The position numbers were made by a program, and so were the translations under genes. Of a stretch of 64,000 bases of DNA, positions 45,279 to 60,229 are shown piece by piece. The DNA comes from Candidatus Omnitrophota bacterium. GTDB lineage: Bacteria; Omnitrophota; Gorgyraeia; Zapsychrales; JANLHA01. Under the pieces are notes generated by a model. It was given only the letters and a program-made list of their open reading frames with translations, was not told the origin of the DNA and did not search any database. The stretch covers positions 14,984-78,983 of the forward strand of contig JAGLHE010000055.1 in assembly GCA_023143685.1 (NCBI GenBank). Reading direction: 5' to 3'. Every line of letters begins with the position of its first letter. Within the stretch, counting starts at the first letter, position 1.

Positions 45279-45485
45279 AGGCGCCTCCTTTTTAAATTAT
45301 CCAACCCCATCCACCTCCGTGGGGAGAAGGAAACATTCGGGGACATAATACTCATTTTTAGGCTTTCCATTAAATATTACGCCACCGGAATTATAAATGG
45401 ATTTATAACATTTTAGCACAAAAAAATGGACAAAATATCCCCTGTTGAATGCTTTCTGCTGCAGAATTTTTTCTGTTTTCTTATC

Positions 45486-45569
45486 CTATTGTTTTTTTGA
45501 CTTTTGTTCCTGTTTTGATTGCTTATGTTTACTACTCTTAGCCTTATCCTTCTTGCCTTTGTCTCCCAT
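45486..45569 (-). CDS. Candidate small lysine-rich peptide (27 aa) with a strong Shine-Dalgarno
   Basis: GGAGG 7 nt upstream of the ATG; MGDKGKKDKAKSSKHKQSKQEQKSKKQ. Confidence 0.2.
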   Translation of the reverse strand: MGDKGKKDKAKSSKHKQSKQEQKSKKQ

Positions 45570-45736
45570 TGCATACCTCCTCTCTTAACGAAGTTCTTTT
45601 TTTTAGAAGCTGTCTTTTCTGGGGCACATATACCAATATAATTTTACTCCAATAAAAAACCCTTCGCAACTAATTAAGCTACTAAGGACAAAATTAAATT
45701 TTTTATTTTCGTCTCGTTTGGGGTATCCCAACAAAT

Positions 45737-45797
45737 CATTGACTCACAACGGGTTAGAAGGTGGGGTGGCTGGCTGAAGCAAGTTAGAACCTGTTTC
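45737..45797. repeat. Cassette-boundary repeat, copy 1 (3' end of the Fic gene; the Fic stop codon lies inside it)
   Basis: cattgactcacaacgggttagaaggtggggtggctggctgaagcaagttagaacctgttt. Confidence 0.7.
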
Positions 45798-46806
45798 ATG
45801 CTAAACTGTACTTAACCGCCCGCGTTGTCCCCTCCTTAACTACGATACCACACTTAACTAACGGCGCAATAAGCTGATTCACCCTTGCCCTGTTTATTTG
45901 CATATATTCACAAATTTGGGCAGAACCCATAATGCCATGCCCGGAAAGAAGATTTAACAATTCTTCTTGCTTTGGTGTTAACCGCATTTTCTTTGCTGCT
46001 TTAGTGCGCTTAACCATTTTTAACCGACGAGATACTTCGTGAACAGAATCCAACAACCCCTCAGCCACATAATCAATCCAATAAGTATAATCCCCGTCCA
46101 TATCACGGGTCTGCTGAATCATATCATAATAGCGCCCTCGATCCGCTGCAAAAAAATCATCAAGGCCAAGGGTATACAACGGATCATATCCTTTTTCAAA
46201 AAGCAACCACTGAGACGCCACCCTGGCGACGCGCCCGTTTCCATCAACAAATGGATGAATGGTTACAAACTCATGGTGAAAAATAGCATTTATAACAATA
46301 GGATGATTTTCTTGAGATTTTTTAACCCAATTAAGAAGGCTAGACATGCGTTGCGCAACTTTTCCAGGAGCAGGCGGTGTACAGACAACGACATTTCTTG
46401 AATTAACAACATAATTCTGCACATGCCTGTATTTTCCACACTTGCTTTCTGCCAACATCCCATTAGTCATCATTTCATGGAGCCTTAACAATCTCTTCTC
46501 AGTTAAATTCTTGTCTCTATTTTGAAGAATCCACTTGACGGCTTTAATACAATTATTAACCTCTCGCTTTTGGTCTTCCTCTGCGATCACATTCTTATTA
46601 GCTGCCAACGCAACAACTTGATCAAAAGATAGCCTGTTACCTTCAATCCAGGTAGACGAGTGAACACTACGATTAATAAATTCTCTCTCTAGTCTAACCT
46701 GTAAAGGTAGAGTAATATCAGCGCGTTTGATAAAGGAAACCTGGGAAGCGATTTTCTCGCAACACTTCACAAAGCAATTTGACATTCGATATTGAGGATT
46801 AAGCAT
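45796..46806 (-). CDS. Fic family protein (AMPylation/Doc-like) with C-terminal wHTH
   Basis: Fic motif HPFVDGNGRVAR; the N-terminal extension in the ORF track overlaps repeat copy 2, so the internal start was chosen. Confidence 0.8.
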   Translation of the reverse strand: MLNPQYRMSNCFVKCCEKIASQVSFIKRADITLPLQVRLEREFINRSVHSSTWIEGNRLSFDQVVALAANKNVIAEEDQKREVNNCIKAVKWILQNRDKNLTEKRLLRLHEMMTNGMLAESKCGKYRHVQNYVVNSRNVVVCTPPAPGKVAQRMSSLLNWVKKSQENHPIVINAIFHHEFVTIHPFVDGNGRVARVASQWLLFEKGYDPLYTLGLDDFFAADRGRYYDMIQQTRDMDGDYTYWIDYVAEGLLDSVHEVSRRLKMVKRTKAAKKMRLTPKQEELLNLLSGHGIMGSAQICEYMQINRARVNQLIAPLVKCGIVVKEGTTRAVKYSLA

Positions 46807-46908
46807 AATGAAAGCATAACATATTGTATAGCTTTTGTATAGGATATTGTATAGGACGACTATCCAGGAGGCCGATTCTTCGTCTAATACCAAAAAAAAC
46901 CCGCCACA

Positions 46909-46974
46909 AGTCATTGACTCGCAACGGGGTAAGAGGTGGGGTCGGTGGCTGAAGCAGGTTAGAACCTGTTTAAC
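46909..46974. repeat. Cassette-boundary repeat, copy 2 (3' end of the NYN gene)
   Basis: agtcattgactcgcaacggggtaagaggtggggtcggtggctgaagcaggttagaacctgtttaac. Confidence 0.7.
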
Positions 46975-46990
46975 AATCTAAACCATTACT

Positions 46991-47623
46991 CTACCAGCTA
47001 TCTGGCTTATAAATTTCGTCATCCCCTACTTTGAACGGACTAGAAAGCAAATTATTGATATATTGTTTTTTGCCAATAGAGAAAGATTTTGGAGCAATTC
47101 TTGCCAATTCACTATTCTTTCTATTAAAAGGAAATGCAAAAAGAAAAGTTTTATCCTCAAAAATCCTTTCACACACTTCTACAGCAGGAAAAAGATCTGT
47201 GTCCCCAGAGACAACAACAATCTGATCACAATCATCGCAATGACAAAGTTCAAACATTTTAAGTGCAATGGAAACATCCGTTTCCTTTTCCTCATGTTTA
47301 AGAATGTTACTTTTACACCGATGACAATATACGTCTTTCTCCTTAAAACGCCCCCTTACGACCTTTATATTTAAACTTTCTAAACACTTAATGTAGGTTA
47401 AATGCCTTTCAATTTTTTCAGGATACCTAGACTCTAAGTAAAACGGTATGGCTGTAAAATAGTAAATATCTTGCAAAACTGCATCACGTCCAAATAAAGA
47501 CAGATAAGATTCACAAAGAGAACGTACGTTAAGCCATTTCGCCTTATACCGAGTTTTTTGCTCTAAACTTCGAATCGAGTGATATAAATTAAATCCATCA
47601 ATCAAAAAACAAACCCTCATCAT
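46991..47623 (-). CDS. NYN-domain protein (LabA/DUF88-like predicted RNase)
   Basis: CFLIDGFNLYH, TDVSIALKMFEL, VVVSGDTDLFPAV motifs. Confidence 0.65.
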   Translation of the reverse strand: MMRVCFLIDGFNLYHSIRSLEQKTRYKAKWLNVRSLCESYLSLFGRDAVLQDIYYFTAIPFYLESRYPEKIERHLTYIKCLESLNIKVVRGRFKEKDVYCHRCKSNILKHEEKETDVSIALKMFELCHCDDCDQIVVVSGDTDLFPAVEVCERIFEDKTFLFAFPFNRKNSELARIAPKSFSIGKKQYINNLLSSPFKVGDDEIYKPDSW

Positions 47624-47864
47624 AGTCCCCCTACAAAAGAAAACCTCCGGATCGTAACCCGGAGGTGGCCAGTGGTCTCCCACTGGGGATGAAATTTGTA
47701 TATATATTTAAATATCTCTTTATCCATTTAAAGTGTACACCATTTTATTCATCTGTACCACAAAATGCAAGACTTTTTTCAAAGCACTAAAAGTTGCCAA
47801 AAATCCTTTCGGAAAGCTATCAAAATCTTACCAAGCACCCGCCAAAACCATGTCTTTAAATATC

Positions 47865-47910
47865 CGTTTGAACCGGAGTGGCTGGCTGAAGCAGGTTAGA
47901 ACCTGTTTAA
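47865..47910. repeat. Cassette-boundary repeat, copy 3 (partial; 3' end of the kinase fragment)
   Basis: ggagtggctggctgaagcaggttagaacctgtttaa. Confidence 0.65.
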
Positions 47911-47961
47911 TACTTAATTAAATATTGTGTCCCCTTATTTTTTTACAAACAAACTTAATTT

Positions 47962-48519
47962 TCAAACATATTGCTTAATTAACGCTGTTAACCTATTAGC
48001 ATTCACAGGTTTTGTGATATACCCGTTCATTCCGGCATCTATACATTTACCCTCCACCCAATCCACCACATGAGCGGTTAAAGCGAGTATGGGAACATTT
48101 TTATCGATATCTCTTCTGATTATCTCTGCCGCTTCATACCCATCTATCCGGGGCATCTTTAAGTCCATAAGCACCAGGTCATATTTCTTTCTTTTCATCT
48201 CCTTAATAACCTCTTCGCCATTACACACAAACCGGATATGACATTCAGCATCAGCGAACAATTCCATCATCAATTTCCTGCTATCTTCATCATCTTCGGC
48301 TACCAGGATATTAACCCCGGCAAGGGCCACTTCCCCGTCAGGCCGCTCCAATAAAACTTCTTTGACTTCCTCTGCCGGAGCCCCCAACTCTTTCATTTTT
48401 AAACAAAATGAAAACTTGCTGCCCTTGCCCATCTGAGACTTCACGGCCATCTCTGAACCCATCTCTTTTACAAGCGTCCGCACGATATGCAGGCCCATCC
48501 CAACACCTTCTCTATCCAT
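47962..48519 (-). pseudogene. Truncated hybrid histidine kinase fragment (end of HATPase_c G2 box + receiver domain)
   Basis: Starts in GVGMGLHIV (G2 box) and is followed by a complete receiver (ILVAEDDE...DLVLMDLKMP...TKP); no HisKA or sensor lies upstream. Confidence 0.6.
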
Positions 48520-48553
48520 GCCTTTTTCTGCTTTATAAAATCGGACATAAGGT

Positions 48554-48907
48554 TCAAAAATATGAATTCTCTAACGTAATCCTAATATGATTCATACCCA
48601 ATGAATGCTGTACTTTTACTAACAAACTCTTTCCTCTAACCTTAAAATTCGGGATATCATCATAATAAGGTTTCAACATTTCAAATATCTTCTTATCCTC
48701 AATAAACCAAACCCCATATTTATAAACACCATAAGGCTGATGCGTAATCCCTAAATCATTCATAGTTACTCTTACTGAATGCTCACTCTTCCATCTTCGA
48801 AAATACTCCATAACATCACTAACTCGCACAATACCCTGCTCTGCAACAAATCTTAATATCTGCATCTTAATTAATTGTCTCTTCATCCTGAAACCTCCAA
48901 TCTCCAA
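48554..48907 (-). CDS. Hypothetical protein
   Basis: 117-aa ORF, no recognised motif. Confidence 0.3.
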   Translation of the reverse strand: MEIGGFRMKRQLIKMQILRFVAEQGIVRVSDVMEYFRRWKSEHSVRVTMNDLGITHQPYGVYKYGVWFIEDKKIFEMLKPYYDDIPNFKVRGKSLLVKVQHSLGMNHIRITLENSYF

Positions 48908-49269
48908 AATAATTTTATTCTCTAACTTTATATAATCTTCTCTTCAATGATACCTAAGGGTCGTTTAAGACCCCTATTTCTCAAATCAAAACGTTGGTTG
49001 AGAGAGAGGGGTCTTGAACAATCTGCGAACGCCAGTGACCAGATTCCCTTTGGTAGCATTGAAGTTAGAAGATTCATTTCCTTCATATGACTTTCACGAA
49101 TGAAACTTTAATGAAATTCTTGTGAGATTTCTAAAACTTCCAATCATCTAATAAAAAAGGACATACTCGTGGGTATCCCGCCACAATTATGCCCTCTTTA
49201 TACTGCTAAAATTTAGTTGATCAGACCAAATTTTCCTCAATAATCACAAAGATCAATTTATTTCCACTT

Positions 49270-49630
49270 CTACATATGTATGGTGAAAAGATTACCTTTT
49301 TAGCCAAAAATTATTAAGAAACCCAAAATTTCTTCCCCCTACTATATAATGGCGAGTAAAGTGCCTTTTTAGACAAAGTTTTTGAAAATAATTCAAAAAA
49401 ATCACTCCCCCTATATACTAATGTTGGAAAGAATGCGTTTTTAGACACAATTTCTGAAAATAATTTAAATTTTTCGCATTCATCTACAAAACTTGATTGA
49501 TAAGCAATAACCTTAAACCCATCTAGAATGGCATTTGCGAAACAATAAAAAACCGCACCCTCTATATACATATGTTAGAAGAAATGCGTTTTTTGCCAAA
49601 ATTTTTTAAAATAATTAAAAATTTATAAAA
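49270..49630. repeat. Degenerate tandem repeat array (4 copies of a roughly 65-70 bp unit, plus a degenerate gap)
   Basis: Units begin ctacatatgtatgg / ctactatataatgg / ctatatactaatgttgg / ctatatacatatgttag; each contains ...tgcgtttttagacac...gaaaataatt. Confidence 0.6.
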
Positions 49631-49890
49631 TCTTGCCTCTTGCTTGTTATTTATTGTCACATGGAAGAACTAAAAATGAAAATAAATATCATGGTAATTA
49701 AAATTGAAGAAGGCAAAATAAAAGGTGGCTCGTCCGTCACACAAAAGGAGTTCTAGAAGCCACAATACTTGATCAGACAAAAGAACAATTGCAAAAAGTC
49801 TAACAATGCACCACGACTGATTTTTATTACTTATCCTATTTAGGTTCGGACACTAGCAGAATTGCTCGCAAAATTTTTACATATTAATAT

Positions 49891-50436
49891 TTATGTATTA
49901 TTATCTTTCTTACGTAACGTCTTTTTTATTTTTAAAAAAGTTGCGTCAAAAGCAACAGAAGTAATTTTTGCAGTAACCTTATATAAATTCTTAGAATTAT
50001 TTGATATTAAAGACCCCGTATTAATTAAAATAGCTTTACCTGAATGCAAAGATTTCTTAATGATTTTAGATGGGGCTAAAGCTTTATTCTTTACAACTTC
50101 TATTCTTTGCTCAGCTCGTTGTTTTATCTCGGAAAGTTTACGGTAAATCTCCTCAATAACTGCCATCAGAATAAATCCAATAACAACAGAAAGCAAAAAA
50201 CACATTCCAATTAAAACATTTCCAAATACCTTGGGAATATCTACGTTAGAACCAATAGCACTAATTTTTGTTGTAAAGAATGAAAATAAAGATAAAAATA
50301 TAATCATAAAAAAACATATTCTAACAAGAGAAATAATTATTTTTCTAATTGGTTCTGGATATTTATCTATAACTTTTTTAACAGAATGATAGGATATCCC
50401 AATAAGAAAACCACGTATTAGCCCAGTAATTTTCAT
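49891..50436 (-). CDS. Hypothetical membrane protein (4 TM)
   Basis: Hydrophobic segments; overlaps the upstream small gene by 4 nt. Confidence 0.35.
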   Translation of the reverse strand: MKITGLIRGFLIGISYHSVKKVIDKYPEPIRKIIISLVRICFFMIIFLSLFSFFTTKISAIGSNVDIPKVFGNVLIGMCFLLSVVIGFILMAVIEEIYRKLSEIKQRAEQRIEVVKNKALAPSKIIKKSLHSGKAILINTGSLISNNSKNLYKVTAKITSVAFDATFLKIKKTLRKKDNNT

Positions 50437-50618
50437 TTATTATTAGCCCTATTTCCTTTCCCTCTTTTCCGTCCCCCTAAATAACTAATTACATTACTTA
50501 TTATTACAAAAGTTAAAATTAAAGCAACTGCCCAGCCTGCTATAGGCAACATTATTAGAATTCCCCATAATATTGCAATTAACACAAGCGCAAAAAAAAT
50601 AACTCCAAATGAACTCAT
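50433..50618 (-). CDS. Small two-TM membrane protein
   Basis: 61 aa, two hydrophobic helices, basic C-terminus. Confidence 0.3.
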   Translation of the reverse strand: MSSFGVIFFALVLIAILWGILIMLPIAGWAVALILTFVIISNVISYLGGRKRGKGNRANNK

Positions 50619-50948
50619 TTTATCCCCTCCTAATTTGTTTTAATAACAAATATAATATATCCCACAATATATTTGGAGTAAAGCATTAATCCTAGGCTAA
50701 TTCCTAATATTTTCTTTATAAATACCTTAATGTTATTAAAGAAATATTGAAATAAGGGCTTGCTTTCTAACATATTGTGGATAGTGCCTTTCTGTGGACT
50801 GCTCTTCTACCAGACCACATCATTTGGATAACTTTTTAAGTTACCCACACAATCCACAACACTGCGACTAGTTTTATTTTAAACACACAGAATTTATATG
50901 ATCAGATAATAATTTAGGAATAATGACAAGAAAGGATTTTAAAAGACA

Positions 50949-51272
50949 TTACGACATTTGGAGAAACTTTACACCCTTCTCATCAATAACTTGAAGAAGA
51001 CGGCTGGCAGGACCATTGGGTTTATTTATATCTAATTCCCATTTTTGTATTGTGGTAGATTTGGTATTTAAAATATATGCAAGCACGCTTTGACTAACAT
51101 GTATTTTCCGTCTAATTCTTCGGATATCCCTTGCTGTATATGCTTTGGGCTGAGGATATTTCAACTTATTAAATTTCCGCATAGACTCAGAAACATCCAT
51201 CACCTCGGATAAACTGCTAAGTTCATCCTCAACAATTTTTCTTATTTCATCTTTATCTCTTCTCTGGCTCAT
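50949..51272 (-). CDS. higA: HigA-like HTH antitoxin (addiction-module antidote family)
   Basis: C-terminal HTH VSQSVLAYILNTKSTTIQKWE; downstream of and overlapping the toxin gene. Confidence 0.6.
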   Translation of the reverse strand: MSQRRDKDEIRKIVEDELSSLSEVMDVSESMRKFNKLKYPQPKAYTARDIRRIRRKIHVSQSVLAYILNTKSTTIQKWELDINKPNGPASRLLQVIDEKGVKFLQMS

Positions 51273-51681
51273 AATGAATTTCCTCGAAAATATTCTTTTT
51301 TACTGCATTATTTATTATTTCTTCCGTAAATTTCTCATACTGCTGTGATAAAATCTTCAAATACTTAAATTCTTCTTTAGTTAAGTTCTCTTTATCTCCT
51401 TTTGAAAAGATATAGACTGCAATAGCCCATTTATCATTTTCCCAGAAGACAATATTTCGAAAACCTCCACTTTTTCCCTTACCTTCTTTGGCAACCCTAA
51501 CCTTATATAATTTTGCACCTAAGTTGTCTTTCTTGTGCTTATGAAAGTTTTCAAAAAGTTGCTTTGAATACTTAGCTTTATCAACTTTTTCATGCTTAAG
51601 CTCTTTCTTCAATTTAGTAACAAAAGAGCGATTCAGCAAATATCTTATTTTCATTCCTCTATCCTGTTTAAAGTATATCAT
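51253..51681 (-). CDS. higB: HigB-like RelE/ParE-superfamily toxin (addiction-module killer family)
   Basis: LYKVRVAKEGKGKSGGFRNIVFWENDKWAIAVYIFSKGDKENL matches the killer-protein core. Confidence 0.6.
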   Translation of the reverse strand: MIYFKQDRGMKIRYLLNRSFVTKLKKELKHEKVDKAKYSKQLFENFHKHKKDNLGAKLYKVRVAKEGKGKSGGFRNIVFWENDKWAIAVYIFSKGDKENLTKEEFKYLKILSQQYEKFTEEIINNAVKKNIFEEIHYEPEKR

Positions 51682-51754
51682 CTAATCATACACTTTACAA
51701 ATATTAAATTAATGCCGTATTAATATTAGTTTCACAAAATTGCTAACAACAATA

Positions 51755-52702
51755 TTAAGGCTTATCATAAACTTTAACCGTAAATGATTGAAAACTTATT
51801 TTTTCAAAGCACTCCATAAAAAAAATCAACTTTTTAAAATAAATCTTCCTATCTTTTTCATTAACATGGAATATTGTATCAAAATTCTTCAAATCACCAC
51901 CGGCAAAAAAAGACATCCATGCAGACCACAAACAAATTGTTCGAGGCGAATGGCAACCTTTTAAACCGTCTAATGATGGTCCCATATATACAACTATTCC
52001 ATTTTCTTCTTTCCAGCAATCATTAAATTTCAACTTAAACTGATTCTCAAAAAAATAATTCCACAATCGCTCTATTACGGCGATATTTGAATTTGAACTA
52101 TATTTTTTTTCTATCGCCTCTTGAATTTTCAAAAGAAAATTATTTAATATCGTAATAATTTTTACAAGATACAAGCTATTTATCTGTAATTTCTCTTCTG
52201 CTTGTGCTCCAGCTTGCTTTAAGTAAGTTTCATTTGAAATTAGATCATTATGAATTAAACAATTCCTTCTTGCTATTGATTCTCTGATCTGCTCCCAATC
52301 GTTTCCCCCAAGGTCAATTTCTATTTGCAACAATTTGCGAACCTTCTTAATCTTATCTTTAATGCATCTATTTTCAATCTGCAAAAGATATTCTTCTAAG
52401 ATGTATTCTTTAAATTGTTTTTCCTCAAAATTGTTCCTGTTTTGTGCAAAACGCTTATCAATTAATATCTCTTTTACCTTTTTTGATGTTAAGATTTCAT
52501 AAGGCCTAGCCAGTAAATATTCTTTTATAGTATCGATTAAAGATGCTTCAAAATAGGCTAATATAAGAGGCAAAAATGATTTTAAGATTAATGAATTTTG
52601 ATTTGTTTGTAAGAGAGTAGCAATTTCGGATAGATTAGAAGTTTTCTTTTGAATATGACGAATTAGATTATCTTTTGTGAGCAGATCAACGTTTTCAAAC
52701 AT
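51755..52702 (-). CDS. Hypothetical protein with a HEPN-like Rx4H motif (Abi_2/AbiD-F-like candidate)
   Basis: ESIARRNCLIHND (R-x4-H) in a predicted helical protein of 315 aa. Confidence 0.35.
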   Translation of the reverse strand: MFENVDLLTKDNLIRHIQKKTSNLSEIATLLQTNQNSLILKSFLPLILAYFEASLIDTIKEYLLARPYEILTSKKVKEILIDKRFAQNRNNFEEKQFKEYILEEYLLQIENRCIKDKIKKVRKLLQIEIDLGGNDWEQIRESIARRNCLIHNDLISNETYLKQAGAQAEEKLQINSLYLVKIITILNNFLLKIQEAIEKKYSSNSNIAVIERLWNYFFENQFKLKFNDCWKEENGIVVYMGPSLDGLKGCHSPRTICLWSAWMSFFAGGDLKNFDTIFHVNEKDRKIYFKKLIFFMECFEKISFQSFTVKVYDKP

Positions 52703-52917
52703 ATTTTACCTTTCTATTTTATGCCGAACAATTATTATACGATAGTCGCTTTTACTGGCTGTTTTGTTATCAATTACTAAAACACTAACATTTTTATCAA
52801 TTTTTGTCCATTTTTCGGACATTTTTATTATATTCCGTTATAAAGTATCACTTTAAAATATTAGCAAATATTGCGACTGTCCTACGACATAAAATTTTTG
52901 CAATACTGAACATAAAC

Positions 52918-53571
52918 TTAAATTTCTACACTTCCATTAAAACCCACTTCAACCTCCCCAAGAAGCTCACCAAACCGTGCCAGTTGCATCCTTTCTTCTC
53001 CCTGTCGAATAATGTCCAATAATTTACGAAGAGGGAAAAGTTTAACAATAACAGGGTCTTCTTTATTATTTCTTAAGAATTTTTTGATGGGCTTTGGAAG
53101 ACTCAAAATTCTGAGAAGCTTGGCGATATAAGACCAATCTTCTCCTGTGATCTTGGAAAGACCACGAACAGTATTAATTCCATGTGCTTCTTTTAATCTC
53201 AGATAATATTCTGCCTTATCCAGAGGGAAATACTCTAAACGGTTAAGATGCGATTGATGCTTTTTCCAAACCTTTTGTTCTATTGTTTCAATATGAGTTA
53301 AATCTTCGGGGCGGTATCCCATGCAGAATTTCTGCCTGCGACTTTTTATAATTATATAGAAGGGGAATTCTGTCCAGTATGTTCTAGGCTGTATTTTTTC
53401 GTATCTTTGCACATATCTTATATATTCGAACATTTCTGCAGAATTAAACCCTATCACTTCCTTTTCAGGCAAAAGAAAACCTTCGTGCAAACCGTTTTTG
53501 TGGCACAGTTCGCACGAAGGTAACATATGGGGTGGATGACTGGTAGTAGAAACCGCGCCCTTCTGAGCCAC
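52918..53571 (-). CDS. ParB-like HTH protein (paralog 1), N-terminus overlaps a copy of the tRNA-His 3' att core
   Basis: LSKITGEDWSYIAKLLRILSLPKPIKKFL resembles the ParB/Spo0J HTH (LRLL.LPE.I); about 55-60% identical to 56659..57231. Confidence 0.5.
   Translation of the reverse strand: MAQKGAVSTTSHPPHMLPSCELCHKNGLHEGFLLPEKEVIGFNSAEMFEYIRYVQRYEKIQPRTYWTEFPFYIIIKSRRQKFCMGYRPEDLTHIETIEQKVWKKHQSHLNRLEYFPLDKAEYYLRLKEAHGINTVRGLSKITGEDWSYIAKLLRILSLPKPIKKFLRNNKEDPVIVKLFPLRKLLDIIRQGEERMQLARFGELLGEVEVGFNGSVEI
53519..53539. repeat. Direct repeat of the tRNA-His 3' end plus 9 downstream nt (att core copy)
   Basis: gtaacatatggggtggatgac, identical to 57258-57278. Confidence 0.75.
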
Positions 53572-53661
53572 AAGTAAAAATCATTTTTTTAAAGTCTCCT
53601 GCCATATACTCTGATATATTAACTCCCGCAATATATTCTCTGCTTATCTCTCTCAATAACT

Positions 53662-54894
53662 TTAGTTCACATTCATTGGCTTTAATTTATCTTCAAGGCT
53701 TAAATGATATGCATGATAATCTGGGCTATCTTCTTCATTATCCATGCGACAGTGCTCAAAAGACCTTCCTCTACGCTTTGGACCGAACACTCTGGCAAAC
53801 TCACCTTGAAACGCAAGAAAGGTATTCCAGTCCTTATCATGTCGTTGTTTATCATTATAATCTTTATGCCAAGGTTTTCGTCCATATTCATCAAAAAAAT
53901 CAGCTCGCTTATTATCATACCCAATAATTATCTCACTCGAAAAAGTAACTGATCTTGGATCTGGCATTAAAAGATAACCATTACCTAGCTTATCCCATTC
54001 TCGATAAGGAATAACTTCTTCCGGGTAAAGCCATTCTTTTTTTGCTGCCGCTACATACCTATACGCTCTTTTCTTTACGATATAATTTATCTCATTTACT
54101 TCGATTTCTGATAACATTCTTTTAGTTTGAATTTGAGTAAAATTAAACATAGCCGACCTAAACATATTGGGATGTGGCCTAAGGACTCTTGGATTCTCGT
54201 AAGGATTTCTAATCCATGATAGATTAGTTAGTATAAGCATTTTATTCAAACTTAATGGGAACAATGTATGTGTTCCCATAAAAGCTATGTCCGGATCTCT
54301 ATGCCTGAGGCACCATTTCGAATTTGGTAAGCAACTTTTATTATATACTGTAACAGGATGATCAGAAATTATAAATTTGGTATCTGAGTCAGAAGCATCG
54401 ACTATGTTCCAAATACATTCAGTCCATAAAGCACAAAAAAGTTGACGAAACTCCTGCATTTTAAACAGTACAAGGTTCTTATCAGATAACCTTACAATTT
54501 CGCCTAACCAATTAAGACCTTTTAAAGTACGTAACTTTTGAATGCTCATGTACAGTAACAGATTTCTAAATGCATCACCATCAACACTTGGATGCTCAAA
54601 ATTCGTGAAGTATTCTATAGACTCCCTCCCGGAAGAGTCTATCTGACCAAAAAATTTTTGTTCTATTTCAGTTGATTCCCAGTTCCCAAAAGCTGTTGTA
54701 TATAAATCATCGACACAAAAACAACTTCGCGGTCCCCACCGAAGCAAAGCTTTCCGTGCGTACATTCCCTTTTTTGTCGATTTTCGCTCAGGATTAAGGT
54801 CTAAATAATAATACTTCTTTTCCTTATAGTCTTCAGGAATAAACCGATATTGGTACCACTTCGGCACATAATGATTTCTTGTGTACTCTGCCAA
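53662..54894 (-). CDS. DUF4238-like protein (family used as the single-gene anti-phage system Rst_DUF4238)
   Basis: N-terminal NHYVPKWYQYRF matches the HYVP.FY..F signature of DUF4238; 410 aa. Confidence 0.5.
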   Translation of the reverse strand: MAEYTRNHYVPKWYQYRFIPEDYKEKKYYYLDLNPERKSTKKGMYARKALLRWGPRSCFCVDDLYTTAFGNWESTEIEQKFFGQIDSSGRESIEYFTNFEHPSVDGDAFRNLLLYMSIQKLRTLKGLNWLGEIVRLSDKNLVLFKMQEFRQLFCALWTECIWNIVDASDSDTKFIISDHPVTVYNKSCLPNSKWCLRHRDPDIAFMGTHTLFPLSLNKMLILTNLSWIRNPYENPRVLRPHPNMFRSAMFNFTQIQTKRMLSEIEVNEINYIVKKRAYRYVAAAKKEWLYPEEVIPYREWDKLGNGYLLMPDPRSVTFSSEIIIGYDNKRADFFDEYGRKPWHKDYNDKQRHDKDWNTFLAFQGEFARVFGPKRRGRSFEHCRMDNEEDSPDYHAYHLSLEDKLKPMNVN

Positions 54895-54988
54895 CTTCTT
54901 CTCTCTCCCATTTATTGTTACTTATACCCCACCAACCACCCCGTCCGACCTGAACAAGGCGATCCCCATTAAAAACAATTCAATAAAT

Positions 54989-55804
54989 CTATCCTAACAA
55001 TTGTGCAATCCTCTCGAAAGCATCTTCCCGGACATTGCTAATAAAATAATCCGTTCCGTTTTCCCGCTCAACAGCAACCGGGCCTTTGTCATCTTTGTGC
55101 GCGAAAAAGGCTTTGATGTTGCTAAGAACCTTTTTGCCTTCCTTGCGATTTTCGATAAACTCTTTGACCTCATTCACCATCTTTGTTTTATCCGGGCAGA
55201 AGCGCAGCATAAAATAGACATAATAAAGGTCTTTTCGCTTTTTGTCCTCGTTTTCACGCAAGACAAAGGTAAGCAATTTATGAAAAACGAATACCGATTC
55301 TGTCGGGATCTGAACCTCCTGTGAGAAAAATTCGATCTTCCTGGTATATTCAAGTACAATTTCAAAATGTTTAATAGTGTTGAGTACAATCTCTTTGCCA
55401 ATCAGCTTCTCATGGATATGCTTTGGAGGATTCAGCACAGTAATAAATTCTACCTCTGCCTTTTCATTAGCCTCTTTGCCTTTGACAACTGGAACAAACG
55501 GCACCATCCTGCCCATATCTACGTGGCGTTCACTATATCCCAATTTTCTAACCCGATCAGCAATAGATTCATCACCATTATAACTTACCAATGTTACGCC
55601 AAAATCCATATCGGTCGTAGTCAGCGGTGTTGAAGATTGTAAAACGCCTGTTCCCAGACCTTGTCCAGTTAATTCTTTGGGCCAGACATGCTTTTGATAT
55701 AAATATGGAATCCACCCGCCAACCAGTACAAGATAAGGTAAAAAGTCACTTAGATCATCAATAACCTTGCGTAACAATTTTTCTGTTGGATAACCTTCAA
55801 CCAA
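54989..55804 (-). CDS. AbiEii-like nucleotidyltransferase toxin (DUF1814 family) candidate
   Basis: LVGGWIPYLY...TTDMDF (GG...D.D NTase motif); 271 aa; overlaps the upstream wHTH gene by 8 nt. Confidence 0.45.
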   Translation of the reverse strand: MVEGYPTEKLLRKVIDDLSDFLPYLVLVGGWIPYLYQKHVWPKELTGQGLGTGVLQSSTPLTTTDMDFGVTLVSYNGDESIADRVRKLGYSERHVDMGRMVPFVPVVKGKEANEKAEVEFITVLNPPKHIHEKLIGKEIVLNTIKHFEIVLEYTRKIEFFSQEVQIPTESVFVFHKLLTFVLRENEDKKRKDLYYVYFMLRFCPDKTKMVNEVKEFIENRKEGKKVLSNIKAFFAHKDDKGPVAVERENGTDYFISNVREDAFERIAQLLG

Positions 55805-56468
55805 TTTCCACCTCTTTCTCTTTGAGGACTTTTAATAAATAGTCAGCGTGTTCTCGACCTCGTTGAGGAAAATGATATAAATCCAAATAAAGTTGAAGAT
55901 TTGAAACAACGGATAGCCCTTTTATTTTCTGTTTGTGAAAAAAAACCGAGTTTTTGTAATATGGTTTGATAAAACAGATATTGCCGCCTCTTTTTAATTC
56001 TTTTAAATCCAACGCCTGCCGGATTTCCAGAGACATTTCTTTGAAACAGTGACTATCCAAATAACAGTACGTCACCGGGGTATTGACATAATTACTGATT
56101 AAATTGGCTCCAGTATGAAGGGTTAAAGCGTATTTGTCTTCCCATTTTCTATTTTCCAGGAAAACTTTCATTGTCTTTAAAATGTCACTTTCACTGTAAT
56201 ATAGATGGTTTTCGTTAAGTTCAAAATTGTAAACCCGAAGCCATTCATTGATCAAGCCTTCTTTGTCAGTGAGTTGGCTGTATGCCTTCCTACCGGATGT
56301 GACCCCTCCTACAAAGCCTTTTTTCCTTAATTCCGCTAATACTTGGGCTGCCCGGCTCCTGCCCACATTAAATTCAGCTTCGAAATCACGGACCGTCCAC
56401 TTGCGCTGCGGCTCTGCAAGCATAGCCCGAATAACTACCGTGGCTTTATCACTAAAAATAGATTTCAT
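55797..56468 (-). CDS. AbiEi-like wHTH antitoxin/transcriptional regulator candidate
   Basis: N-terminal wHTH (RSRAAQVLAELRKKGFV), about 220 aa; operon partner of the NTase. Confidence 0.4.
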   Translation of the reverse strand: MKSIFSDKATVVIRAMLAEPQRKWTVRDFEAEFNVGRSRAAQVLAELRKKGFVGGVTSGRKAYSQLTDKEGLINEWLRVYNFELNENHLYYSESDILKTMKVFLENRKWEDKYALTLHTGANLISNYVNTPVTYCYLDSHCFKEMSLEIRQALDLKELKRGGNICFIKPYYKNSVFFHKQKIKGLSVVSNLQLYLDLYHFPQRGREHADYLLKVLKEKEVEIG

Positions 56469-56658
56469 AACGACTTCCCTTCCAAGAGTAAATGTCTACT
56501 TATTATAATTGTCCGATATTTAACGGACATATCAACATAATGGACATTATGACATTTATTAAAACAATGTCAAGATTTTGATTGTTATATTCATTTTCCA
56601 TTTGTTTCACCTTCAATGAATTTACCCGGACTTTAATATGACAAATATTCTTACATTG

Positions 56659-57231
56659 TCAAATTCTTACATCTATCAGCCCCTGTTCTTCCATGAACTC
56701 TCGAAAACGAATTATTTGAAGCGATTCTTCGCCCTGCCGGACAATATCTAACAATATTTTGAAATTGAAAAGCTTTACAACAGAAGGATCACTTTTATTA
56801 TTGCGGAGAAAATCCTTGATCTGTTCCGGCAAACCCAAGAGTCTAAGAACCTTGGCGATATATGACCACTCTTCACCTGTAATCGCGGAAAGGCCACGAA
56901 CCGTATTTACGCCATGAGCCTCTTTCAGCCTCAAATATAGTTCAGCTTTATCAAGAGGAAACCGATCTAAACGGTTAAGAAAGCCTTGATGCTTTTTCAA
57001 GGCTTTCTGGTTAATAGTATCAATATGGGCAAGGTCTTCCGGGCGATAGCCAAAACGGAAATGCTTCTTATGATTTTCCATAGCAAAATAAAAAGGGAAT
57101 TCACACCAATACGTGCGGGGTGGAATAGTAGCGTATCGCTGAATATAACGGACATATTCCAGCATTTCTTCAGAAGAGAATTCTACGTAGTCTTTGCTCT
57201 CTAAAGAAAAACTCCCACACGAGCTGTGGCA
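56659..57231 (-). CDS. ParB-like HTH protein (paralog 2), adjacent to tRNA-His
   Basis: LSAITGEEWSYIAKVLRLLGLPEQIKDFL; the track start (57309) reads through the tRNA, so the true start is downstream (GTG near 57231 or Met at MLEYVRY). Confidence 0.5.
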   Translation of the reverse strand, partial: CHSSCGSFSLESKDYVEFSSEEMLEYVRYIQRYATIPPRTYWCEFPFYFAMENHKKHFRFGYRPEDLAHIDTINQKALKKHQGFLNRLDRFPLDKAELYLRLKEAHGVNTVRGLSAITGEEWSYIAKVLRLLGLPEQIKDFLRNNKSDPSVVKLFNFKILLDIVRQGEESLQIIRFREFMEEQGLIDVRI

Positions 57232-57265
57232 CACAAGTGCGCCGGTTCGCGTGGGAGTAACATAT

Positions 57266-57340
57266 GGGGTGGATGACGGGATTTGAACCCGCGACCGCCT
57301 GAACCACAATCAGGAGCGCTACCACTGCGCTACATCCACC
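57266..57340 (-). tRNA. tRNA-His (anticodon GTG), with G-1 and encoded CCA
   Basis: Acceptor GTGGATG/CATCCAC, anticodon arm CCTGA-TTGTGGT-TCAGG, T-arm GCGGG-TTCAAAT-CCCGT. Confidence 0.9.
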
Positions 57341-57456
57341 ATATTATAGTTATAAATTCTTAGTGATAAATGGTCGGTAAAGAGACATCATTTTACCAAA
57401 AAATCCCATATCAGCAAGTAGTTCTTTCTCACAAACAACCCCTCGCTATCAAAAAA

Positions 57457-58506
57457 CTACTCTTCCCTAATCAAGCTCTTCCCAAATGCCTCAAATTGCT
57501 TGCCTATACTCTTTAATTCATCCTTAACATTCCCGGAACTGTCTTTTCCATATCCAACCGTACCTTTCATTGCCACCGCACCAACTTTAAAATCATCCAT
57601 TTCCGTCTTAAAAGAAAAATTCATCCCCACGTCTACGCCAAACGCCCCCAATGCATCTAAAACCACCCCTGCCCCTGATTCTTCACGATCAATCATCTTG
57701 GACTGCCGCCCCATTTGGGCAAGCTTAACACTCCCTGTCACGACCATATCATTTGCAATAGATTTAAAGTCTGCCGCCAACCCCACACGCCCGTCATTTC
57801 CAATCAGCGCCAAGGTCGCATCCATATCTTTCTTTAAAAAATTTACCCTTCCTTGCCCTTTAACACGACTGCCTAAAAACGGGATATCCTCGCCACCCAC
57901 AACTCCCTGGACTTGAAAACATGTTTCATCAGCCTGTAGAGGATACGACAATGCATGCGCTGTCAAGCTAACCTTCTGCGCTTCAGGCTGCCATCCCTTT
58001 TCAGGAAAAAATCCCTTAAATTGTATTTGCCCGTTTTTTACCGCTAAATGTTTGACAATAATTTGCTTCTTTACTTTCGTCTCTGTTTTTCCTTTATCTT
58101 CTGAAAGGTATTTTTTTTCGTTACTAAAAACGAGCACATCTTTTACTGCGGTGATTTCCGGCACCACTTCGAATGGCTGCGCTTTGGGCAAATCCCTTTG
58201 CGTGATAACAATATCAGGGTTGATAACCTTTACTTCAGATAAAACAATTTTTTGCGGCCCGCCCCCTGCCAGCTGTATAACAACCTTCTCGATTTGTCCA
58301 ATATCCTTTACATCAATACCGTCGACCCTAACCCCAAAAGGAAACAGAAACTGCACGCCCTTAACCGTTACCGTCTTTTGTAAGGCCTGGCTTAATGTTG
58401 ATTCCACCATTCGCTTGCCATACAGATTGACCACCACCGAGGCCGCCCAGAAAACAACAATAATGAAAACAAAAAGACCAATAAATATTTTAGAAATTCT
58501 TTTCAT
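57457..58506 (-). CDS. AsmA-like / DUF748-like membrane-anchored protein
   Basis: N-terminal TM, repetitive beta-rich body; weakly similar to 60917..61903. Confidence 0.35.
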   Translation of the reverse strand: MKRISKIFIGLFVFIIVVFWAASVVVNLYGKRMVESTLSQALQKTVTVKGVQFLFPFGVRVDGIDVKDIGQIEKVVIQLAGGGPQKIVLSEVKVINPDIVITQRDLPKAQPFEVVPEITAVKDVLVFSNEKKYLSEDKGKTETKVKKQIIVKHLAVKNGQIQFKGFFPEKGWQPEAQKVSLTAHALSYPLQADETCFQVQGVVGGEDIPFLGSRVKGQGRVNFLKKDMDATLALIGNDGRVGLAADFKSIANDMVVTGSVKLAQMGRQSKMIDREESGAGVVLDALGAFGVDVGMNFSFKTEMDDFKVGAVAMKGTVGYGKDSSGNVKDELKSIGKQFEAFGKSLIREE

Positions 58507-58511
58507 AATAA

Positions 58512-58567
58512 AAAAACGCGCCCAGGACGATTCGAACGTCCGACCCTTGGCTTAGAAGGCTGTTGCT
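58512..58567 (-). pseudogene. tRNA-Arg 3'-half remnant (T-arm + acceptor 3' strand + variable loop + anticodon-arm-like segment)
   Basis: 38 nt identical to the 3' end of the tRNA at 59264-59337 including the trailing T-tract; lacks the 5' acceptor strand and D-arm. Confidence 0.75.
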
Positions 58568-58721
58568 CTATTACCCAAGGCACTCAACAAATTACATATA
58601 AATTATTAAATAACAACGACTTACGGTAAAACAAAAAATGGGCTATTCAGCCCAAAAACCTCAAGTGTCCAACCTTAAGAAAAACTTATCTTGTCTCACT
58701 TACCGCCAACTATCCTAATTC

Positions 58722-59243
58722 TTAAAAATCTCCAGACTTTCCCGCTCCGCCAAAATTCCCCCCACCGAACGGTGTCACCCCAAACGGACTTACTCCATAT
58801 CCAGCCGCACCTGAACGTGGAACGACTTTAAGTTCTTGTTGCATTTCTATTATCCCTCGCCGCAATCTTTCCTTCTCCTCTTCACTTAAATCTAAATTCT
58901 TCAATCTTTGCTGTTGTTTTTCTTTCGCATCCTCAATATCTTTGTATTCTTTATTTACTAACTCAAGAAACGACATCCATTTCTCTCTTAATTTCTCATC
59001 TTCTGTCACTGCAATAAAATATCTTGCTAAATTACGTCGTGTAGCAACATTTGAGCTCAAAGCGTATTCGACATATCGACCAAACTCAGCCATTTTCTGC
59101 AACTCTAATCTTTGCTGTTGTATATCATTACTAATACTATTACCAGCATACGCGACTATTATCGCACAAATGATAGCACTTACAAATTTTAACCAATGCC
59201 CCAACCTCTCATCACTCCCGGGAAAACTGAAACCCATAATCAT
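58722..59243 (-). CDS. Hypothetical membrane-anchored coiled-coil protein with Gly-rich C-terminus
   Basis: One TM, QQQRL coiled coil, GGGNFGGAGKSG tail. Confidence 0.35.
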   Translation of the reverse strand: MIMGFSFPGSDERLGHWLKFVSAIICAIIVAYAGNSISNDIQQQRLELQKMAEFGRYVEYALSSNVATRRNLARYFIAVTEDEKLREKWMSFLELVNKEYKDIEDAKEKQQQRLKNLDLSEEEKERLRRGIIEMQQELKVVPRSGAAGYGVSPFGVTPFGGGNFGGAGKSGDF

Positions 59244-59263
59244 ATTCCTTAAAAATAAAAAAA

Positions 59264-59337
59264 CGCGCCCAGGACGATTCGAACGTCCGACCCTCGCCTT
59301 AGAAGGGCGATGCTCTATCCAGCTGAGCTATGGGCGC
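59264..59337 (-). tRNA. tRNA-Arg (anticodon TCT)
   Basis: Acceptor GCGCCCA/TGGGCGC, D-arm GCTC-AGCTGGATA-GAGC, anticodon arm TCGCC-CTTCTAA-GGCGA, T-arm GGACG-TTCGAAT-CGTCC; T-tract follows. Confidence 0.9.
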
Positions 59338-59404
59338 ATATCTCACAAATTTTAATTATATAGTTATAACAAAATAAAATAATTATGTAAACCACCAAAC
59401 AATT

Positions 59405-59713
59405 TTAGCTTTCTAATACTGCATCAATCTTATCTACCATCCTTTTAGTCATATCCATCACCCGTTTATAAATATCCTCCATATTCTGAGAAATCACACA
59501 ACTATTCGCACTCATAGAAGAAGCATCAAAAGCCAGACGATGAAAATACATTCCATTTTCAATTTCTTCATTGAGCACTTTTACTTTAAATTTAATATCA
59601 ATTATATCTTTTTGAAATTTTGAATTAAAAAGAGATAGTTTATCTAAAACAAACCCCTCTGAAAACAATTGACATTTCTTCAAACTAAGCCCAGCATCTT
59701 TCTTTGCCTTCAT
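59405..59713 (-). CDS. Hypothetical protein
   Basis: 102-aa ORF. Confidence 0.3.
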   Translation of the reverse strand: MKAKKDAGLSLKKCQLFSEGFVLDKLSLFNSKFQKDIIDIKFKVKVLNEEIENGMYFHRLAFDASSMSANSCVISQNMEDIYKRVMDMTKRMVDKIDAVLES

Positions 59714-60229
59714 TTACTGAGCTACCGCTTGAAATTCTTCACCTGTTACATCTTTTAATTCAGAAAATATTAACAACTTAGCATCTCTTTTTTTATACCA
59801 TCTACCATTATGCCAAAATATTATTTGACCCAAAATCCCAGACAACCAACCACAAGATATATAACATTAATTTTATCCATAAATTCCCTCACTGTGTACG
59901 GCGGCATTTTATCATATTAGTTTTAATATTACTAATATAAATAAAGGGCACCTGCCTTAGCACATAACTATAAGGCAGATGCTCTTTTTGAAATAAAAAT
60001 CCACAGCAGAGTTGAAATACATTATATATCAAACAGTTGCGAGATTTAACTCTTTGGTAACCCAGGGTACTTTTTCCTCTGGTGTCCATATAATGTCCAT
60101 TTTCGGGATGACACTGTTTTCTTCAAACATCAAGAACCTTTCTTTTTAAATTGGCTAAAATTAAACACGAAAGAAAACGCTTTCTTGCCCAGTGAAAAAA
60201 CTCTTGATTTCCAGAACATTTCTTTCTAT

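Follow-up and report, generated by a model that had tools for sequence, protein, structure and literature searches.

What brought a 3.7-kb segment without an integrase to lie beside the tRNA-His gene of a Candidatus Omnitrophota bacterium, bracketed by two copies of the 3' end of that gene? The segment is found in contig JAGLHE010000055.1 (positions 14,984 to 78,983), a 64-kb stretch that we call the window; all module and feature coordinates below are window positions, and L-numbers designate the related loci that were fetched for comparison. We find that the segment belongs to a tandem island of 4-5 modules (45731-57277, 11.6 kb), all co-oriented with tRNA-His. In relatives, junctions of the same kind lie at the very end of genes for large serine recombinases (LSRs), so that this LSR family is probably the builder of such stacks. 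In our opinion, a reasonably probable origin of the island is that an LSR family specific for tRNA-His inserted modules one after another at the 3' end of this gene, in a site-specific manner, the window modules being recombinase-less cassettes.

A repeated unit at the tRNA-His gene

The anchor of the segment and the elements found at both of its ends, each headed by a small gene for a ParB-like helix-turn-helix (HTH) protein, are the following.

57265-57339, minus strand: tRNA-His(GTG), anchor and proximal attachment site (ARAGORN; Rfam RF00005, 68.7 bits)
57257-57277, no strand: 21-bp repeat, proximal copy, made of 13 nt of the tRNA-His 3' end and TATGTTAC
57206-57258, minus strand: hairpin 1 with U-run, terminator-like, conserved right arm of the proposed site (folds at -30 kcal/mol, z -5.4)
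56659-57165, minus strand: ParB-HTH gene 1, head gene of module 1, 168 aa (PF17762, 25.7 bits, above cut-off)
53528-53573, minus strand: pseudo-tRNA-His 3' half, from anticodon loop to CCA, left arm of the distal repeat (direct reading and tRNA alignment)
53520-53540, no strand: 21-bp repeat, distal copy (exact match search)
53475-53521, minus strand: hairpin 2 with U-run, right arm heading module 2 (folds at -27.6 kcal/mol, z -6.6)
52918-53433, minus strand: ParB-HTH gene 2, module 2 (PF17762, 26.0 bits)

The 21-mer, GTAACATATGGGGTGGATGAC, is present in exactly two exact copies. Tolerating up to 3 mismatches gives no third copy, and the pair was never recovered in 100 dinucleotide shuffles (chance expectation: none). 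A first-pass annotation, made from the sequence of the window, had described this repeat as the core of an attachment (att) site, and the repeat does behave as the attachment-site core of tRNA-His. Its exactness is confirmed, with the distal copy moved by one nucleotide to 53520-53540, and so is its composition of tRNA-His 3' end plus downstream nucleotides, except that the division is 13+8 instead of 12+9 when the tRNA is ended according to ARAGORN, CCA included. The flanks, which had been regarded as diverged, are so only in part: a degenerate tRNA-His half lies upstream of the distal copy, and a homologous GC hairpin with U-run lies downstream of both.

At the distal junction, the last 21 nt match tRNA-His perfectly and the preceding 33 nt are only ~65% identical to it. 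The T-arm motif of this pseudo-tRNA half is a degenerate GGTTT located 17 nt from CCCCA (GGTTC and the terminal CCCCA are 15 nt apart in the window tRNA-His), and a homologous arm is carried by the junction of L012. Hairpin 2 is homologous to hairpin 1, with compensatory stem changes between them. As the distal copy is accompanied by a hairpin and a pseudo-tRNA half, the repeated unit consists of pseudo-tRNA, core, hairpin and ParB gene, not of 21 bp alone.

The second diverged ParB-like gene that the annotation had placed past the distal repeat is recovered by Pfam as HTH_ParB. The two ParB-HTH proteins are 64-67% identical to each other, and their best matches in other genomes reach 90% and 89%, respectively; the nearest relative of the second (89%) is found in L074, behind an LSR-type arm. 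Since each copy has closer relatives elsewhere, a recent duplication in situ was rejected, and the two copies were instead brought together.

A tandem array of modules

Three further junctions, homologous but with degenerate copies of the repeat, lie beyond the distal 21-mer. They belong to a repeat family, D2, which consists of AAACAGGTTCTAAC...GCCAGCCACCCCA followed by an intact or decayed hairpin, and they delimit two cassettes.

47843-47908, minus strand: junction D2a, of which only the LSR-type left arm is left (AAACAGGTTCTAACCTGCTTCAGCCAGCC...) (repeat family D2; sequence)
46991-47683, minus strand: NYN-domain single-gene cassette (PF01936; PADLOC candidate defence gene HEC-09, E 1e-43)
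46892-46971, minus strand: junction D2b, with LSR-type left arm, core, hairpin and U8 run (repeat family D2, the repeat itself at 46906-46971)
45796-46806, minus strand: Fic-domain single-gene cassette, start codon uncertain (PF02661; PADLOC SoFic, E 1.1e-53)
45731-45796, minus strand: junction D2c, with LSR-type left arm, core and decayed hairpin, distal island end (repeat family D2; flanking genes)

Because these junctions bracket single-gene cassettes, the island spans 45731-57277; ordinary genes (Yip1, ABC transporter) are found past D2c. At D2b, GGTTC is located 20 nt before CCCCA, the hairpin folds at -19.7 kcal/mol (z -3.2) and no ParB gene follows. The proposal of two related elements in tandem therefore holds insofar as ParB-led modules are stacked, but the array comprises 4-5 modules and extends out to 45731. 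As the annotation had stated, the bracketed 3.7 kb contain no recombinase (Pfam; tblastn with LSRs), and no recombinase gene was found elsewhere in the 64-kb window either (Pfam, precomputed Pfam).

Serine recombinases end at the same core in relatives

Recombinases were searched for in all stop-to-stop open reading frames (ORFs) of the fetched loci (2,895 ORFs, 1.6 Mb), using lambda Int, E. coli XerD and two phage integrases as phmmer queries, plus the serine recombinase of L074. LSRs with the Pfam domains Resolvase, Recombinase and Zn_ribbon_recom were detected in ~10 loci. They form two clades that are ~22% identical to each other, and both clades are linked to the junction. Element-borne LSRs are present in L043, L047, L074, L083, L143, L147, L152 and L158, and the LSR gene ends at the CCCCA core in at least 7 related loci. 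In L043, L047, L083, L143, L147 and L152, it ends at a junction directly upstream of the hairpin and the ParB gene, on the same strand; L074 has its LSR 3.6 kb upstream of the ParB gene; and the LSR of L158 comes last in a series of co-oriented mobile-element-like genes, one of which encodes a Replic_Relax protein. L152 carries, in this order, an LSR, a ParB gene, ~9 kb of cargo and a second LSR, which suggests elements of the form junction, ParB, cargo, LSR, junction. Clade I counts 85 members at E <= 1e-20, ~73 of them at >=50% identity to the query, and several are located on contigs with ParB matches.

The ends of the LSR genes themselves carry the site. In L083, L158 and L074, the LSR 3' end reads NGTTC, 20 nt, CCCCA, and that of L074 (...TTCATCCACCCCA) is almost identical to the window's own tRNA end. 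Among ~37 LSR proteins, similarity is kept up to the GACCCCA codons in three different reading frames (tails ...FAGGKxxDP in ~20 proteins, ...SQGVTxATP in 11 and ...VRTGEHxGPQ in 6), and the sequences differ beyond. Conservation that is independent of frame and ends at one nucleotide position indicates that a DNA site and a junction lie there. Four other LSRs have the tail ...EEQMGWATGIEPATPRSTILCSNQLSYAHH, which matches the antisense translation of Omnitrophota tRNA-His (HMGWLTGFEPATTRSTILYSNQLSYSH), so that these four genes run head-on into tRNA-His.

In L083 (1155-3737) and L043 (8954-10477), we also noticed that LSR, junction, hairpin and ParB-HTH are read through in a single open frame. 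More distant LSR relatives (P0196-P0199, 35-37% identity) have tails ..MVGREGLEPPTSWV and ..VPDGIRTRDSLGHNQAL, which by eye look like the antisense of other tRNA genes; judging from these tails, this LSR lineage may target tRNA 3' ends more widely.

Geometry of the site and proposed mode of accretion

GGTTC and CCCCA are separated by 15 nt in every real tRNA-His. In contrast, NGTTC and CCCCA are 20 nt apart in 13 tRNA-less junctions, including three verified LSR ends and D2b and D2c of the window, and 22-23 nt apart in four more. The right arm reads CCCCA, 16 nt, GAAC(C), and this arrangement is invariant in >60 sites in which the intervening bases vary. Both arms together (GGTTCGNAT ... ATGCGAACC) form a ~46-bp dyad centred on CCCCA, and if GCGAACC is a half-site of this dyad, the invariance of GCGAAC inside a terminator hairpin would be explained. 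In serine-integrase sites, the motif of the zinc-ribbon domain lies 5 bp further out in attP than in attB, which is a hallmark of such sites; the left-arm spacings of 15 and 20 nt seem, as far as sequence can tell, to match this outward shift (PMC3783163).

Under LSR-driven accretion, the array would have grown through repeated site-specific insertion at the tRNA-His 3' end, and the 3.7-kb segment would be its newest, tRNA-proximal module. The centre of the site would be the terminal CCCCA, where we would place the crossover, with the T-arm GGTTC as left arm and the GCGAACC of the following hairpin as right arm. An autonomous element would have the order core, hairpin, ParB-HTH gene, cargo, LSR gene, core, the last LSR codons providing the left arm of the element's own site. 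As the window modules lack an LSR, they would be non-autonomous, either decayed or movable only by an LSR acting in trans. If module 1 is mobile, its excision is predicted to leave a restored site ...GGGTTCAAATCCCGTCATCCACCCCATATGTTACCTTCGTGCGAACTG and to produce a circle with the junction ...GGTTTCTACTACCAGTCATCCACCCCATATGTTACTCCCACGCGAACCGG. The ParB/KorB-like protein would serve as a DNA-binding accessory, such as a regulator, a directionality factor or a maintenance factor. For the integrase-less satellite mobilised in trans that the first-pass annotation envisaged, the LSRs of relatives that end at the core are candidate helpers, but the left arm of the distal repeat is not of their type.

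Several observations weigh against this account of the window. With tblastn, neither an LSR gene nor a remnant of one is found in it (E > 0.1), and ~90% of the related loci have no LSR within 10 kb. The 5-bp shift affects left arms only, right arms all having the same spacing, which does not fit a canonical symmetric attP. As its left arm, the distal repeat has a pseudo-tRNA half with a 17-nt spacing, and five arms from four genomes (the window, L012, the second copy of L005 and two in L006) all start at the anticodon loop. The anticodon loop is a classic crossover position of tyrosine integrases. In addition, serine integrases require an identical core of only 2 bp, and an exact identity of 21 bp exceeds this need. 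Neither an empty site nor a circular junction was found for the 3.7-kb unit, its 21-mer being absent from the contigs of Joint Genome Institute (JGI) metagenomes. A look-up of the upstream DUF748 protein for an empty site returned no record, probably owing to a differing gene-start call. The only long contigs that bear the cassette, one of them from an independent ENA assembly, show the identical arrangement, and no strain polymorphism was found. Finally, in L068 (the only complete chromosome examined), ordinary genes and no island follow the ParB gene adjacent to tRNA-His, so that ParB could be a resident neighbour of tRNA-His.

The shared start of these arms raises the alternative that a tyrosine integrase crossed over in the anticodon loop of tRNA-His. 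The distal pseudo-half would then be the displaced original 3' half, and the integrase would have been lost or would act in trans, the segment resembling a cis-mobilisable element or the remnant of a tycheposon. The similarity of the pseudo-half does begin at the anticodon loop, as it does in L012, L005 copy 2 and both L006 junctions, and tyrosine-integrase islands typically contain partial tRNAs and stacked remnants (10.1101/2020.12.28.424599). L006 even has a tyrosine integrase 5.4 kb from tRNA-His. However, this is the one tyrosine recombinase detected in the 1.6 Mb of related loci (a search of limited sensitivity, as it relied on few seed proteins), and it is found outside the island, across the tRNA from it. 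Moreover, a displaced native half should decay evenly, which does not fit 21 perfect nucleotides preceded by 33 at ~65% identity. The five pseudo-halves may also stem from one ancestral unit, carried along as copies with a module of the ParB / AbiE / DUF4238 type, instead of five events. We thus hold a tyrosine integrase to be quite improbable as the source of the repeat.

Three other identities were tried for the junctions and rejected. An integron is not supported, as Pfam finds neither IntI nor any tyrosine recombinase and the junctions do not fit the attC cores RYYYAAC/GTTRRRY. No TnpA is present that would go with an IS200/IS605 TTAC target. Examined by eye for a dif/XerCD-like site, TATGTTA resembles a XerD arm, but there is no convincing XerC arm or spacing.

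A lineage-wide unit across Omnitrophota

The ParB-led start, which the annotation had noted for two elements, is no peculiarity of the island: the unit formed by tRNA-His, hairpin and a small ParB/KorB-type HTH gene recurs across Omnitrophota, as a fixture of the lineage. In most close relatives (species-representative genomes and JGI metagenomes), the end of tRNA-His lies ~95 nt upstream of the ParB-HTH gene, and a tRNA-Pro / tRNA-Arg / tRNA-His neighbourhood often surrounds the unit. In a census of ~140 partly redundant loci, 69 ParB copies have a full tRNA-His next to them, 40 follow a pseudo-tRNA or att-only junction, 11 lie at contig edges, and another 40, mostly of a distant subfamily, have no recognisable att.

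Stacking is not confined to the window. Tandem ParB-led modules are also observed in L005/L062, L081, L136, L140 and L149 (three copies in the latter), and stacks that include recombinase-less members occur in the window, L005, L006, L059, L081, L136, L149 and L152. In L059 and L006, extra junction copies mark the distal island ends, after which core genes resume. Past the ParB gene, the cargo is variable and, in every locus examined except L068, made up mostly of defence or toxin-antitoxin genes: examples are AbiEi/AbiEii, AAA_14/DUF4143, RloB/OLD-like ATPases, SLFN helicases, KAP NTPase, type I restriction-modification, an ABC-3C system, a reverse transcriptase and AbiGi. A ParB / AbiE / DUF4238-type module architecture is common to the window and L005/L062, as is a conserved G-rich element upstream of DUF4238.

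Such a widespread anchor could also be read as needing no dedicated recombinase. In that case, tRNA-His, hairpin and ParB gene would form the chromosomal anchor of a defence hot spot, filled by homologous or homology-facilitated illegitimate exchange, and the duplicated unit would come from foreign DNA that had its own anchor copy and recombined in the longest identical stretch. Duplication of the entire unit (pseudo-tRNA, hairpin and ParB gene), well beyond a short core, is in line with this, as are the identity of 57-90% for ParB against 22-33% for the neighbouring DUF748, the lack of any recombinase in most arrays and the island-free ParB gene beside tRNA-His in L068. We nevertheless regard this explanation as unlikely. 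It gives no account of LSR genes that end precisely at the core in two clades, and it leaves unexplained why the LSR tails lose similarity at the core in three frames, as well as the 15- versus 20-nt spacing and the indel-free right arm. A 21-bp identity is also short for a RecA-dependent crossover.

The distant ParB subfamily (L039, L040, L043-L047, L140, L143, L149 and L152), which has no tRNA nearby, carries the core in reversed form (AACAAATGGGGTC), still inside GGTTCG...CGAACC and sometimes as 2-3 repeats or within a long inverted repeat. A G-U wobble in the acceptor stem of the L059 tRNA-His was considered as a scar of 3'-end replacement and discarded as uninformative, since such wobbles occur in many lineages.

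The hairpin and the ParB-HTH protein

The hairpin (~55 nt) is conserved in sequence, with compensatory changes in 6 of the 9 stem pairs (29 sequences). It has many G-U pairs, which lie on the tRNA-sense strand, and its loop-side GCGAAC, 16 nt past CCCCA, is invariant. No Rfam 15 match was obtained for it, the two tRNAs being the only significant matches in 45000-60000.

The product of ParB-HTH gene 1 has 211 homologues, the best 120 of which are 57-90% identical to it; those with a named source are all labelled Omnitrophota. Both window proteins exceed the PF17762 cut-off of 22.6 bits (25.7 and 26.0 bits). In the AlphaFold2 model (predicted local distance difference test, pLDDT, 81.6), Foldseek matches only the DNA-binding domains of Noc, Spo0J/ParB and KorB, over the C-terminal two-thirds (probability <=1.0, E >= 0.016), and a PDB profile search finds the same Noc/ParB/KorB families (4umk, E 7e-4). 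For an N-terminal ParB/Srx domain, there is no Pfam ParBc match, and one PDB profile alignment spans query residues 9-134 against 57-185 of 4umk. Residues 1-68 form a short alpha/beta unit with an invariant G39-x-R41 and without a match to a catalytic domain. Structure and profile searches thus rule out the hidden recombinase or relaxase fold that had been suspected, and the model identifies a ParB/Noc/KorB-type DNA-binding protein, not a recombinase.

Could ParB-HTH and hairpin nevertheless constitute a new recombination or cassette-capture machinery, of which LSRs are occasional passengers? One version would have a host enzyme recruited to the folded single-stranded hairpin, as for integron attC sites or Xer-exploiting elements. 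ParB-HTH and hairpin are the only features common to nearly all modules, the hairpin abuts the core, and its stem structure does not explain the invariant GCGAAC. On the other hand, model and profiles match DNA-binding domains only, with no catalytic fold, and D2a-c act as boundaries without a ParB gene. The position of the G-U pairs on the tRNA-sense strand and the U-run fit an ordinary RNA terminator, and GCGAAC is at least equally well explained as an LSR half-site mirroring the T-arm. We consider such a machinery highly improbable.

Starting again from LSR-driven accretion, one may tentatively go further and regard tRNA-His, hairpin and ParB-HTH as the working half of a lineage-wide, LSR-run cassette-capture platform in an integron-like role, a possibility to which we would give little weight. 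The terminator-like hairpin would double as the right half-site. A free element would read LSR and ParB-HTH together across the site, as in the single frames of L083 and L043, and integration would uncouple the two, so that the strong tRNA-His promoter would now lie ahead of ParB-HTH. The protein could in turn serve as a switch for directionality or regulation, and defence genes would be gathered and reshuffled as short recombinase-less cassettes.

Other features of the unit were noted. Between the U-run and the ParB ATG (57166-57205 and 53434-53474 in the window, and the equivalent spot in ~30 loci), a second small hairpin is present in many lineages; its 3' arm ends in ..AGAAATG and its arms covary (CTGAGG/CCTCAG, CTGGGG/CCCCAG, CTGATGG/CCATCAG). 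Elsewhere, and in both window copies, a peptide-like (V/I)EFxPxEM is conserved instead, in the reading frame of ParB. The open frame running through tRNA, hairpin and ParB was dismissed as coding evidence: the spacing between CCCCA and ATG varies modulo 3 from locus to locus, so there is no conserved coding frame. In L136 (~300-345), the 12-nt core GACCCCATATGT is tandemly duplicated directly before the hairpin (GGGACCCCATATGTGACCCCATATGTGACCCTCATGCG), which could be the footprint of an aberrant recombination at the core. In L006 (8572-9907), an insertion sequence with an rve-family transposase interrupts the proposed attachment site precisely between TATGTTAC and the hairpin, and puts 1.3 kb between tRNA-His and its hairpin and ParB gene.

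A viral origin of ParB-HTH was also rejected, as no relative was found in IMG/VR; three exact IMG/VR matches to the 17-nt hairpin motif are chance matches, with neither tRNA nor hairpin context. Upstream of tRNA-His, the DUF748/AsmA-like gene (57457-58506) keeps its position in many genomes (L006, L059, L068 and others), and its product is 22-33% identical between genomes against 60-75% for the adjacent ParB-HTH proteins. This gap reflects either an unusually strong constraint on ParB or horizontal exchange.

Comparison with described systems

By analogy, the closest described system appears to be that of the ssrA genomic islands (ssrA-GIs) of Dehalococcoides, which are found in tandem at the tmRNA gene with 20-bp repeats and encode a CcrB-like serine recombinase and a ParB-domain protein in their integration module; neighbouring islands without recombinase were interpreted as cis-mobilisable (PMC3146451). 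Both systems consist of tandem islands downstream of a small stable-RNA gene with a ~20-bp direct repeat of its 3' end. Both associate a CcrB-like LSR with a ParB-domain protein (here in elements of relatives), and both have some stacked islands without that module. They differ in target (tRNA-His instead of tmRNA), in phylum (here Omnitrophota) and in cargo, which here consists of defence and toxin-antitoxin genes and not of dehalogenases. In addition, the ParB-like protein has only the HTH part here, whereas that of ssrA-GIs is described as ParBc, and beside the LSRs examined there was no sign of a second, small serine recombinase (DsiA/CcrA-like). In most LSR-bearing loci, the LSR is located at the distal end and its 3' end forms a site arm, unlike in ssrA-GIs; the window itself is recombinase-free.

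The SCCmec elements (staphylococcal cassette chromosome, SCC) offer another parallel. Their Ccr LSRs insert cassettes at the 3' end of a conserved gene, leaving direct repeats, and the cassettes stack into composite islands. Pseudo-SCC cassettes that lack ccr persist and can be moved by Ccr in trans. The SCC target is a protein gene (rlmH/orfX), however, and SCC have neither a ParB-like head gene nor a conserved hairpin arm, besides belonging to another phylum and carrying other cargo. SCC elements are also discussed in the work on ssrA-GIs (PMC3146451).

Tycheposons of Prochlorococcus integrate at tRNA genes, new arrivals pushing older ones deeper, and leave partial tRNAs and degenerate elements scattered (10.1101/2020.12.28.424599). 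Stacking and partial tRNAs at a tRNA gene are common to these islands and ours, but tycheposons use tyrosine recombinases, none of which accompanies the arrays studied here. Accretion is also a property of cis-mobilisable elements (CIMEs) together with integrative and conjugative or integrative and mobilisable elements: att-flanked DNA without integrase or transfer genes lies in tandem at one site and depends on help. It has been described for tyrosine or DDE recombinases in Firmicutes, and has no conserved head gene. As for the proposed site, it would resemble those of the A118/LI integrase model (PMC3783163): it is ~46 bp long, it has inverted outer motifs GGTTCG...CGAACC around the core, and its element-borne arm carries the outer motif 5 bp further out than the chromosomal arm does. 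Unlike in typical phage attP/attB pairs, the shift concerns one arm only and the arms share far more identity.

What distinguishes the present system is the combination of a tRNA-His target, an Omnitrophota host, an HTH-only ParB head gene with a hairpin arm, an LSR 3' end as site arm and a defence cargo. Omnitrophota are uncultured, and no paper that we found deals with mobile elements or defence islands at their tRNA-His gene. The locus is recurrent and recognisable from its tRNA-His, its 46-bp dyad site with hairpin and its small ParB/KorB-like gene, and anti-phage and toxin-antitoxin cassettes gather there; it can guide the search for new defence genes in this poorly sampled phylum. It would also provide, after the ssrA islands of Dehalococcoides, a natural second example of serine-recombinase cassette stacking with a ParB-like partner. 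It yields new serine integrases, of interest for genome engineering, whose candidate attB (tRNA-His and hairpin) and attP arms can be taken directly from the sequence. That the window segment lacks an integrase is no anomaly but the usual state of such cassettes.

Cargo of the window modules

The cargo genes and the intergenic element of modules 1 and 2 are listed below.

55797-56468, minus strand: AbiEi_2-like antitoxin/regulator, module 1 (PF09952, 28.1 bits, above cut-off)
54989-55804, minus strand: nucleotidyltransferase, putative AbiEii-like toxin partner, weakly assigned (PF12281 NTP_transf_8, 23.7 bits, cut-off 26.3)
54918-54969, minus strand: G-rich intergenic element preceding DUF4238, conserved (L005 and L059 have 86-92% nucleotide matches in the equivalent place)
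53662-54894, minus strand: DUF4238 protein, 410 aa, last gene of module 1 (PF14022, E 1.4e-16)
51755-52702, minus strand: HEPN (RiboL-PSP-like) protein, module 2, weakly assigned (PF18735, 22.3 bits, below cut-off)
51253-51681, minus strand: RelE/HigB-like toxin, module 2 (PF06296, E 4.7e-18)
50949-51272, minus strand: MqsA/HigA-like antitoxin, module 2 (PF15731, weak)

The gene content first proposed for the bracketed segment is borne out by Pfam for HTH_ParB, AbiEi_2 and DUF4238. The AbiEii-like partner, whose gene overlaps the AbiEi_2-like gene by 8 nt, is only NTP_transf_8-like: it fits PF12281, below cut-off, and not PF08843. PADLOC matches neither the AbiEi_2-like gene nor the nucleotidyltransferase, and so reports no AbiE system. 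In relatives, bona fide AbiEi/AbiEii pairs occupy the corresponding position, and DUF4238 remnants are found in the corresponding slot of L062/L064, directly before pseudo-tRNA and ParB.

The G-rich element (~50 nt, GGGGATCGCC..CAGGNCGGACGGGGTGGTTGGTGGGG) is located at 54918-54969 in the window, 8564-8615 in L005 and 12768-12807 in L059. In all 3 genomes, it lies between the AbiEii-like gene and DUF4238, the neighbouring AbiE genes belonging to different Pfam families; it may mark a sub-cassette boundary or be a leader of DUF4238.

Module 2 has a G+C content of ~29%, against ~40-44% in the flanks. Its low-GC part contains four diverged direct repeats of ~78 nt (49255-49624; 62-79% identical, ~70-150 nt apart), which were detected by a repeat search and not by Tandem Repeats Finder. 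Each shows a promoter-like TTGTCTAAAAA...TATATAG...GGGGGA pattern, and the 85-aa ORF that runs across them is probably spurious. At the distal end of the module, beside D2a, an ORF (47962-48519) encodes the last 40 residues of a histidine-kinase ATPase domain followed by a receiver domain, and from its sequence looks like a truncated gene caught at the cassette boundary.

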